Positions 16,280 to 17,861 of a stretch of 64,000 nucleotides of DNA are shown here, piece by piece. The stretch is from the NCBI RefSeq assembly GCF_003334405.1, contig NZ_QOWM01000002.1. The stretch is one strand, 5' to 3'. This DNA comes from Escherichia coli (GTDB lineage Bacteria; Pseudomonadota; Gammaproteobacteria; Enterobacterales; Enterobacteriaceae). Position numbers and translations under genes: made by a program. The notes below the pieces were generated by a model. The model did no database searches. It worked only from the letters and a program-made list of their open reading frames with translations, and was not told where the DNA came from. Position 1 is the stretch's first letter; the number at the start of each line of letters is the position of its first letter.

Positions 16280-16705
16280 ATGGCAATGCATCTTAACGAA
16301 AACCTCGACGATAACGGCGAAATGCATGATATCAACGTGACGCCGTTTATCGACGTGATGTTGGTTCTGCTGATTATCTTTATGGTGGCGGCACCGTTAG
16401 CGACGGTAGATGTGAAGGTGAACTTGCCTGCTTCTACCAGCACGCCGCAGCCGCGCCCGGAAAAACCGGTTTATCTGTCGGTGAAGGCAGACAACTCGAT
16501 GTTTATCGGTAACGATCCGGTCACCGATGAAACAATGATTACGGCGTTGAATGCGTTAACCGAAGGCAAGAAAGACACCACCATCTTCTTCCGAGCGGAC
16601 AAAACCGTCGATTACGAGACGTTGATGAAGGTAATGGATACGCTGCATCAGGCGGGTTACCTGAAGATAGGTCTGGTCGGCGAAGAAACCGCCAAAGCGA
16701 AGTAA
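16280..16705 (+). CDS. exbD: TonB-system protein ExbD
   Basis: 141-aa ExbD/TolR-type ORF with a single TM helix, 6 bp after exbB. Confidence 0.95.
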   Translation: MAMHLNENLDDNGEMHDINVTPFIDVMLVLLIIFMVAAPLATVDVKVNLPASTSTPQPRPEKPVYLSVKADNSMFIGNDPVTDETMITALNALTEGKKDTTIFFRADKTVDYETLMKVMDTLHQAGYLKIGLVGEETAKAK

Positions 16706-16713
16706 AGTAGAAT

Positions 16714-16925
16714 TGCCTGATGCGCTACGCTCATCAGGCCTACAAAATCTATTGCAACATGTTGAATCTTCGTGCGTTTGTAGGCCGGATAAGGCGTTCA
16801 CGACGCATCCGGCATTAGGTGCTCAATGCCTGATGCGCTACGCTTATCAGGCCTACAAAATCTATTGCAACATGTTGAATCTTCATGCGTTTGTAGGCGG
16901 ATAAGGCGTTTTCGCCACATCAGGT
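16714..16925. repeat. REP/BIME cluster: two near-identical ~75-bp units
   Basis: gcctgatgcgctacgctYatcaggcctacaaaatctattgcaacatgttgaatcttcRtgcgtttgtaggc occurs twice, with the gccggatAAGGCG / cggatgcgtcg palindromic motifs typical of E. coli REP elements. Confidence 0.85.
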
Positions 16926-16945
16926 AAGAGTGAATTCACAATGAT

Positions 16946-16978
16946 GCCCGGTTGCTTTTCACAACCGGGCATTTTTTT
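16946..16978 (+). terminator. Rho-independent terminator after the exbBD/REP region
   Basis: Stem gcccggttgcttttcacaaccgggc followed by a T7 run; it overlaps the yghA stop codon. Confidence 0.7.
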
Positions 16979-17861
16979 AACCTAAATGCTCGCCGCCGCA
17001 CACGCCGTGCACTTCTGCGGTGACGTAGCTCGACTCCTGACTTGCCAGATAAACATATACAGGGGCCAGTTCCGCCGGTTGCCCCGCACGTTTCATCGGC
17101 GTTTGCTGACCAAACTGCGGGATCTTATCCTGCGTTTGTCCGCCGGAAATTTGCAGTGCTGTCCAGATCGGGCCTGGCGCGACAATATTCACCCGAATAC
17201 CTTTCTCCGCGACCTGTTTTGCCAAGCCACGGCTGTAGTTCAGAATCGCCGCCTTCGTAGCCGCATAGTCCAGTAAATGCGGACTTGGCTGGTATGCCTG
17301 GATTGACGAAGTGGTGATGATACTTGCACCTTTCGGTAGCAGGGGGATCGCTTCCTGGGTTAGCCAGAACAGCGCGAAAACGTTAATGGCAAAGGTCTTT
17401 TGAAACTGTTCGCTGGTGAGGTCTGCAATATCCGGAATGGCAACCTGTTTCCCGGCGACCAGCGCCATAATATCCAGCCCGCCTAACGCCTTGTGCGCTT
17501 CGTGAACCAGCGAACGGGCAAATTTCTCATCGCTTAAATCGCCTGGCAGCAGAACGGCTTTGCGTCCGCATTCTTCAATGATCTTTTTCACATCCTGAGC
17601 GTCTTCTTCTTCCACGGGAAGATAACTGATCGCCACGTCAGCCCCTTCACGCGCGTAAGCGATGGCGGCAGCGCGACCTATTCCGGAATCGCCCCCTGTC
17701 ACCAGTGCTTTACGATCTTTCAGGCGACCGCTACCAACATAGGTTTTCTCGCCGCAATCCGGTACCGGTGTCATCTTCGCCTGGATGCCTGGCGTCGGTT
17801 GTTTCTGTTTGGGATATTCACCAGTGTAATACTGCGTGGTCGGGTCTTTTAAATGAGACAT
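16977..17861 (-). CDS. yghA: Short-chain dehydrogenase/reductase YghA
   Basis: 294-aa ORF with an SDR Rossmann motif ([12 protein letters not shown]). K-12 synteny. Confidence 0.9.

Follow-up and report, generated by a model that had tools for sequence, protein, structure and literature searches.

REP222 between exbD and yghA of Escherichia coli: a strain-variable tandem REP/BIME array in the 3'UTRs of two convergent genes

In the Escherichia coli DNA analysed here, a short repeat stands twice between the convergent genes exbD and yghA. This raises the question of what kind of element it is, how it came to lie there, and what it may do to the two mRNAs that would run through it. By "the window" we mean the whole stretch of 64,000 nucleotides that was analysed, and all coordinates refer to it unless another locus is named. 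Alone, the array matters little: knowledge of REP/BIME arrays goes back four decades, and the one at this site, REP222, has been catalogued and probed on Northern blots. The locus as a whole offers a clean natural allele series, whose members have an empty site, a single unit (of more than one sequence form), two units, or an interruption by IS621. In the account that we favour, with a probability of roughly 0.75, REP222 consists of two tandem BIME-1-type units that were inserted and duplicated, and it acts as a dispensable exonuclease barrier in the 3'UTRs on both strands.

Location and architecture of the array

The preliminary description had placed the repeat between exbD and yghA, upstream of a strong terminator hairpin, and both points hold. 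The stop codons of the two genes lie at 16703-16705 and 16977-16979, records that are 100% identical to this region are annotated in the same way, and a predicted hairpin of 12 pairs followed by seven T (-20.5 kcal/mol) stands downstream of both units. The array is thus extragenic, lying wholly between the end of exbD (16705) and the end of yghA (16977), and it begins 9 nt past the stop codon of exbD, upstream of the intrinsic terminator. Nine nucleotides (16706-16714) separate this stop codon from G16715, the first paired base of the first REP stem. The spacer between the two genes measures 271 bp, as in MG1655, and in a comparison of 651 bases K-12 derivatives match the window with 100% identity. 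The stop codon of yghA overlaps the T-run of the exbBD terminator. The features of the locus are as follows.

16280-16705, plus strand: exbD coding sequence, ending in TAA at 16703-16705, taken from the list of open reading frames and from 100%-identical records; the array stands in its 3'UTR.
16706-16713, plus strand: left flank of the insertion, AGTAGAAT, defined by comparison with the empty allele.
16714-16743, plus strand: short Z-type REP (Z1) of unit 1, with a CTAC end; predicted RNA hairpin of -15.3 kcal/mol.
16744-16779, plus strand: L linker of unit 1, 36 nt, aligned to a tkt BIME-1; it contains the palindrome CAACATGTTG and, on its minus strand, the IHF-like core ATTCAACATGTTG (16755-16767).
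16780-16814, plus strand: inverted Y-type REP of unit 1, with a GTAG start; predicted RNA hairpin of -17.0 kcal/mol.
16783-16853, plus strand: match to the Rfam family naRNA4 (RF02564), covering the Y of unit 1, the inter-unit linker and the Z of unit 2; 61.0 bits against a gathering threshold of 59.5.
16815-16826, plus strand: inter-unit linker, TTAGGTGCTCAA, 12 nt, resembling the Y-Z2 linker of REP325.
16827-16856, plus strand: short Z-type REP (Z1) of unit 2; predicted hairpin of -13.2 kcal/mol.
16857-16892, plus strand: L linker of unit 2, containing the IHF-like core ATTCAACATGTTG as well, again on its minus strand (16868-16880).
16893-16926, plus strand: degenerate inverted Y-type REP of unit 2 (Y'), with one deletion and 5 substitutions relative to the Y of unit 1.
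16927-16942, plus strand: sequence that borders the insertion on the right, AGAGTGAATTCACAAT; read on the minus strand, it occupies the place that the U-tract after the hairpin has in the empty allele.
16943-16978, plus strand: intrinsic terminator of exbBD, with a 12-bp stem, a 7-nt loop and seven T; predicted -20.5 kcal/mol.
16977-17861, minus strand: yghA coding sequence, stop codon at 16977-16979, converging on exbD; the array forms its 3'UTR (list of open reading frames, annotation, and Northern data in PMC10100675).

Two side observations concern the surroundings of the array. The ExbB protein WP_000527844.1 carries the RefSeq/PGAP name "tol-pal system-associated acyl-CoA thioesterase" in many genomes, while the MG1655 record gives the correct name, "Ton complex subunit ExbB"; the former name, we assume, belongs to YbgC. 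A second BIME is present in the window at 27819-27890, between hybG and yghU. In it an 11-nt linker joins an inverted REP of the long Z2 type to a Y-type REP, and the element starts about 10 nt past the hybG stop codon.

The repeat had been described as a 75-bp unit present in two near-identical copies differing at a few positions. Its duplication is borne out by self-alignment, which gives two direct copies with a mean identity of 91% over about 120 columns. A repeat search of the window aligns 16714-16785 with 16827-16898 (72 nt, 97% identity, 2 mismatches) and continues the match with 16786-16812 against 16898-16924 (27 nt, 81% identity, one 1-nt indel). The start-to-start spacing of the units is 113 bp, and the figure of about 75 bp applies to the near-identical core only. 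Likewise, the description of few differences fits the cores, which are nearly alike, and fails for the 3' REPs, in which 5 of 27 positions are substituted and one indel is found. A search of the 64-kb window with a 34-nt piece of the unit gives exactly two hits, and 100 shuffles give none. Tandem Repeats Finder called no tandem repeat over the array, because two copies of a long period (113) that differ by an indel score too low; the repeat was therefore defined by the repeat search and the pairwise alignment instead.

The earlier assignment to the REP/BIME class is also correct, with the amendment that the unit is a composite, Z1 - L - Y, of 113 bp. The palindromes match known REP sequence: 16827-16856 is identical at 29 of 30 positions to the REP query GCCTGATGCGCTACGCTTATCAGGCCTACG (Durrant 2024, PMC11208160). 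CTAC or GTAG feet are present at 16740-16743, 16780-16783, 16853-16856 and 16893-16896, the fourth palindrome being degenerate, and the site is extragenic. Copies are dispersed, queries containing the array finding a median of 14-16 matching places per E. coli genome, among the matches listed. Moreover, Murashko et al. 2023 (PMC10100675) list REP222, a name taken from EcoCyc, for exbB, exbD and yghA. The array is REP222, an ordinary catalogued E. coli repeat, and is nothing new in kind. EcoCyc, as quoted in PMC10100675, gives REP222 five REPs (REP222a-d plus REPv222e), against the four palindromic units visible in 16714-16926. The fifth may be the terminator hairpin or an unrecognised variant.

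The class of BIME is less straightforward. According to Ton-Hoang 2012 (PMC3333891), BIME-1 elements combine z1 and y around a long L linker that often holds an IHF site and are found in single copy; BIME-2 elements combine z2 and y with short linkers (S) in tandem copies; and atypical BIMEs are multi-copy chimeras of the two. Each unit in the window has the make-up of BIME-1, with one short Z and one inverted Y, and this Z falls 7 nt short of the Z2 in the naRNA4 model. The 36-nt L linker aligns with the linker of the BIME-1 at the tkt locus of another strain and has in common with it the core ATTCAAC-N-TTG, although its sequence is divergent and does not fit the strict consensus for IHF. The units are, however, in tandem, and the single-copy state typical of BIME-1 occurs in 110 single-unit genomes only. 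Assignment to BIME-2 is contradicted by the short type of Z and by the long L linker within the unit, the tandem arrangement alone being in agreement with it. Judged by its sequence, the array would best be called a tandem BIME-1-type, or atypical, BIME, because it has the composition of BIME-1 while standing in tandem.

The L linkers raise the possibility, which we place on the unlikely side, that the array acts at the level of DNA. Each linker would bind IHF, as in the RIB/RIP class, so that two bends 113 bp apart might set the local DNA topology at the end of the two converging transcription units. Consistent with this, BIME-1 L linkers frequently carry an IHF site (PMC3333891), and both linkers align with the canonical tkt linker and have the same one-mismatch core (ATTCAACATGTTG here, ATTCAACATATTG at tkt). 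On the other hand, the strict consensus WATCAANNNNTTR has no match in the array, one-mismatch matches occur about 1.1 times per kb in the window, and L has diverged here from the canonical L at about one third of its positions. Since the strict consensus is missed and one-mismatch matches are common, the case for IHF would be one of positional homology rather than motif score.

Alleles across genomes and the history of the site

The preliminary description had also stated that such arrays vary in copy number between strains and had suggested a comparison across E. coli. In the survey set of 5,426 complete E. coli genomes, variation of this kind is indeed found, with alleles of 0, 1 and 2 units and an IS621-interrupted form. 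The empty site, GCGAAATAAAAATGATGCCCGG, is present in 1,575 genomes (29%), and two units, recognised by the junction between unit 1 and unit 2, in 3,538 (about 65%). One unit is found in 110 (2%). This last count comes from a separate query, since the query with the one-unit allele was uninformative: the search joins two overlapping pieces and so failed to split one-unit from two-unit genomes. By subtraction, 203 genomes (about 4%) fall in no class. No allele with at least three units was seen among 50 sampled full-length rows. Empty-site strains include EC958 and JJ2434, and two-unit strains include K-12, BL21 and O157:H7; these memberships suggest a split which, we presume, runs along phylogroups.

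The single-unit alleles comprise at least two sequence classes (loci L005, 2945-3075; L013-L017; L002, 507-632). The first, with more canonical L and Y, is found in E69, EC42405, R32_14_1F, Z0117EC0005 and MFDS1022581. The second has the unit sequence of K-12: the unit in EC931 is fully identical to unit 2, and the one in RM9513 is a hybrid of unit 1 and unit 2. Their sequences suggest that EC931 and RM9513 could be two different, independent products of unequal crossover in a two-unit array.

IS621, an element with a bridge-RNA recombinase, accounts for the interrupted form. The 11-mer ATCAGGCCTAC within a REP is a natural target of IS621 (PMC11208160), and it occurs exactly at 16733-16743 and 16846-16856, once in each Z REP. 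In L3Cip3, WWCOL-315 and E7476 (one of these insertions at locus L004, 3355-4633), IS621 sits after ATCAGGCCT in the Z REP of unit 2. All three of the unclassed genomes that were fetched have IS621 inside unit 2, and the row for H90 is consistent with this. Probably about 200 of the 5,426 genomes carry the interrupted allele. The subtraction gives 203, and 217 is an upper bound, as the two IS621 junction queries are confounded by IS621 in similar BIMEs elsewhere.

The array was probably inserted, as the outgroup, Escherichia sp. MOD1-EC7003, shows the empty site in identical form. This outgroup evidence consists of one Escherichia sp. genome, a scan of species representatives for the terminator hairpin having given three loci only. 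A locus in an Akkermansia MAG (L006, 3310-3338) has the same 11-nt arms, ATGCCCGGTTG and CAACCGGGCAT, with another loop and unrelated flanks, and was set aside as a chance match that is not E. coli DNA. All filled alleles have one common left junction. On the simplest reading of these sequences, a single unit would have been inserted in the A-tract between the exbD stop codon and an originally bidirectional terminator. This unit would have diverged and later been duplicated once, giving two units, and unequal crossover between the copies may occasionally, in a few lineages, have collapsed the array back to one unit.

Such a history raises the question of whether the array has any selected function at all. 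It could be neutral or selfish DNA, a leftover of REP/BIME proliferation driven by a RAYT-type transposase or by recombination, which drifts through crossover and has no selected effect on its neighbours. We give this reading somewhat less than an even chance; it partly overlaps the main account and differs from it only on whether the RNA effects matter. Ton-Hoang 2012 (PMC3333891) ties the spread and copy-number variation of REP/BIME sequences to the TnpA-REP transposase, and the polymorphism found here (1,575 empty, 110 single and 3,538 double), the degenerate last REP and the tolerance of IS621 inside the array in about 200 genomes are all consistent with drift. Two observations weigh against it. 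First, the two-unit form is nearly unchanged, most of the 25 full-length two-unit rows sampled being at least 99% identical. Second, RNA fragments of yghA that contain the REPs are measurably more stable (PMC10100675). At any rate the array is dispensable, because 29% of genomes are without it and about 4% have an IS inside it, and the same figures argue against a strongly selected function.

The allele series also bears on two further readings. The Y-linker-Z junction scores above the naRNA4 threshold on the plus strand (61.0 bits against 59.5, 16783-16853), so that a small RNA might be processed out of the array and condense the chromosome with HU. Given the other evidence, we consider this very improbable. 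The model in essence detects any Y-linker-Z pair of REPs, the Z of the array is of the short type, 7 nt below the Z2 of the model, and the minus strand, with 44.9 bits, falls below the threshold. The match is confined to the two-unit allele: one-unit alleles give 40.8 or 20.8 bits and the empty allele gives none, and for this reason we regard the match as a by-product of the duplication. Moreover, the function of the family itself is disputed, a 2026 preprint (10.64898/2026.03.23.713779) having found REP325/naRNA4 to be without measurable nucleoid compaction. A weak match of the terminator to STnc310 (E = 0.23) was dismissed as that of a generic hairpin.

The list of open reading frames also holds a frame of 63 codons with a TTG start across the array (16713-16904, plus strand), and PGAP annotates a comparable "hypothetical protein" of 63 aa inside a tandem REP array in the yahI-yahG spacer of strain N3 (locus L012, 398-589). 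The chance that the frame at exbD-yghA is a small protein gene is virtually nil. Its sequence consists of REPs and linkers, no record examined at the locus annotates it, 29% of genomes lack it, and one-unit alleles have it halved. We rejected it as REP-derived, and the frame in N3 likewise looks like a REP artefact.

Terminators and transcripts across the array

The empty and filled sites differ in their terminators. In the empty allele (locus L003, 511-541) the hairpin is terminator-like on both strands, because TAAAAA upstream and TTTTTTT downstream provide a U-tract for each. In the window the hairpin (16943-16973) is terminator-like on the plus strand only, since insertion in the A-tract took out the U-tract of the yghA strand, where CAUUGUGAAUUC now comes after the hairpin. 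On the plus strand the array would be transcribed as the 3'UTR of exbBD, because it is located between the stop codon and an intact terminator; by this reckoning the insertion lengthens the exbBD 3'UTR from about 45 to about 275 nt. Transcription of the minus strand would make the array the 3'UTR of yghA, the loss of the U-tract being seen in the sequence and read-through being backed by a published RNA of about 300 nt.

The predicted structure of these RNAs is considerable. Three of the four REPs form stable hairpins on either strand (-13 to -17 kcal/mol), the Y of unit 1 reaching -17.0, whereas Y' of unit 2 gives a weak, non-canonical one (-9.4 kcal/mol, z = -2.0). For the whole 3'UTR the predicted folding energies are -110.8 kcal/mol (plus strand, z = -7.1) and -115.4 kcal/mol (minus strand, z = -8.6).

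Published data bear directly on yghA. On Northern blots of K-12 RNA with a REP probe, the full-length yghA RNA of about 1,000 nt has a half-life of 2.8 min, and a REP-containing intermediate of about 300 nt has one of 6.2 min (PMC10100675). Both RNAs are stabilised by fluoride-induced depletion of ATP, by inactivation of RNase E and by loss of the degradosome scaffold, and exbB, exbD and yghA are all up under fluoride (PMC10100675). The size of the fragment fits the loss of the yghA terminator, as the intergenic region is 271 nt long. The earlier suggestion that such an array can stabilise the upstream mRNA thus receives support on the yghA strand, where the intermediate outlives the full-length RNA; for the upstream exbBD mRNA we infer a similar effect.

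Most likely the array works on both strands as a barrier to exonucleases in the 3'UTR and as a local terminator and stabiliser. The REP hairpins would stall 3'-to-5' exonucleases and so leave long-lived intermediates that contain the REPs, which the RNase E degradosome would then clear; both steps have been demonstrated in the literature for yghA and would apply to exbBD by extension. This role agrees with the preprint of Harris et al. 2026 (10.64898/2026.03.23.713779), in which REPs act as 3'UTR terminators and stabilisers, 30% of convergent gene pairs hold one, and convergent pairs with REPs are more highly expressed. REP325 itself is described there as a stabiliser that also acts as a partial, Rho-dependent terminator. 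Genome-wide, according to this preprint, genes with terminal REPs are without longer half-lives. On the exbBD strand the added REPs may contribute little, because a strong terminator hairpin already guards the 3' end.

The first REP hairpin might instead, or in addition, act on translation. According to the rule of Liang 2015, as quoted in PMC12306157, REPs less than 16 nt downstream of a stop codon lower translation, and the first REP stem, 9 nt past the TAA of exbD, is inside this range. It could stall terminating ribosomes, leading to mRNA cleavage and ribosome rescue, and would in this way lower ExbD relative to ExbB. We consider such a brake unlikely. The hairpin of the REP-less allele is even closer to the exbD stop codon, at 4-5 nt, and is stronger than the REP stem, so that stalling specific to the REP is doubtful and the REP may add nothing.

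A more speculative consequence, and in our judgment quite an improbable one, would come from the split of the bidirectional terminator. The insertion would have extended the overlap of the exbBD and yghA transcripts from about 35 nt to about 270 nt of full complementarity, and in this way might couple the fates of the two mRNAs. If so, the Fur-regulated exbBD mRNA and the yghA mRNA would interact through processing of double-stranded RNA or through transcriptional collision in strains with the array only, and the 29% of strains with the empty site would show no such interplay. Alleles with 0, 1 or 2 units and the IS621-interrupted allele are a ready test series for this possibility. More generally, this series and the lost U-tract of yghA make the locus a handy test case for whether REPs in 3'UTRs act as terminators, as stabilisers or as translational brakes.

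Comparison with known REP systems

Four known systems resemble the array in part. It is like BIME-1 (RIB/RIP) in its short Z and inverted Y, in a long L linker that can be aligned to the canonical one, and in the IHF-like core that is kept. It differs in that BIME-1 is a single-copy element, while here two units stand in tandem, L has diverged and the Y of unit 2 is degenerate; at the exbD-yghA site there are also single-unit alleles whose L and Y are more canonical. The array is like the atypical BIMEs in being tandem, in having a BIME-1 L linker together with a short linker between units as in arrays of the BIME-2 type, and in having a copy number that varies among strains. The atypical class is, however, a catch-all and has no positive definition.

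REP325/naRNA4, in the yjdM-yjdN intergenic region, is another array of tandem Y and Z REPs in a 3'UTR, and the Y-linker-Z junction of REP222 passes the threshold of its model. REP325 has six units of 77 bp with the long Z2 and no L linker, and lies between tandem genes. The array described here, in contrast, has two units of 113 bp with Z1 and L, and lies between convergent genes.

Finally, the REPs of osmC, malE-malF and hisJ-hisQ form 3'UTR hairpins that impede 3'-to-5' exonucleases and give rise to stable intermediates, which are cleared by the degradosome. The yghA/REP222 intermediates have been shown alongside those of osmC (PMC10100675). The difference is that the array between exbD and yghA serves two converging transcripts and, on the exbBD strand, stands upstream of a separate terminator.
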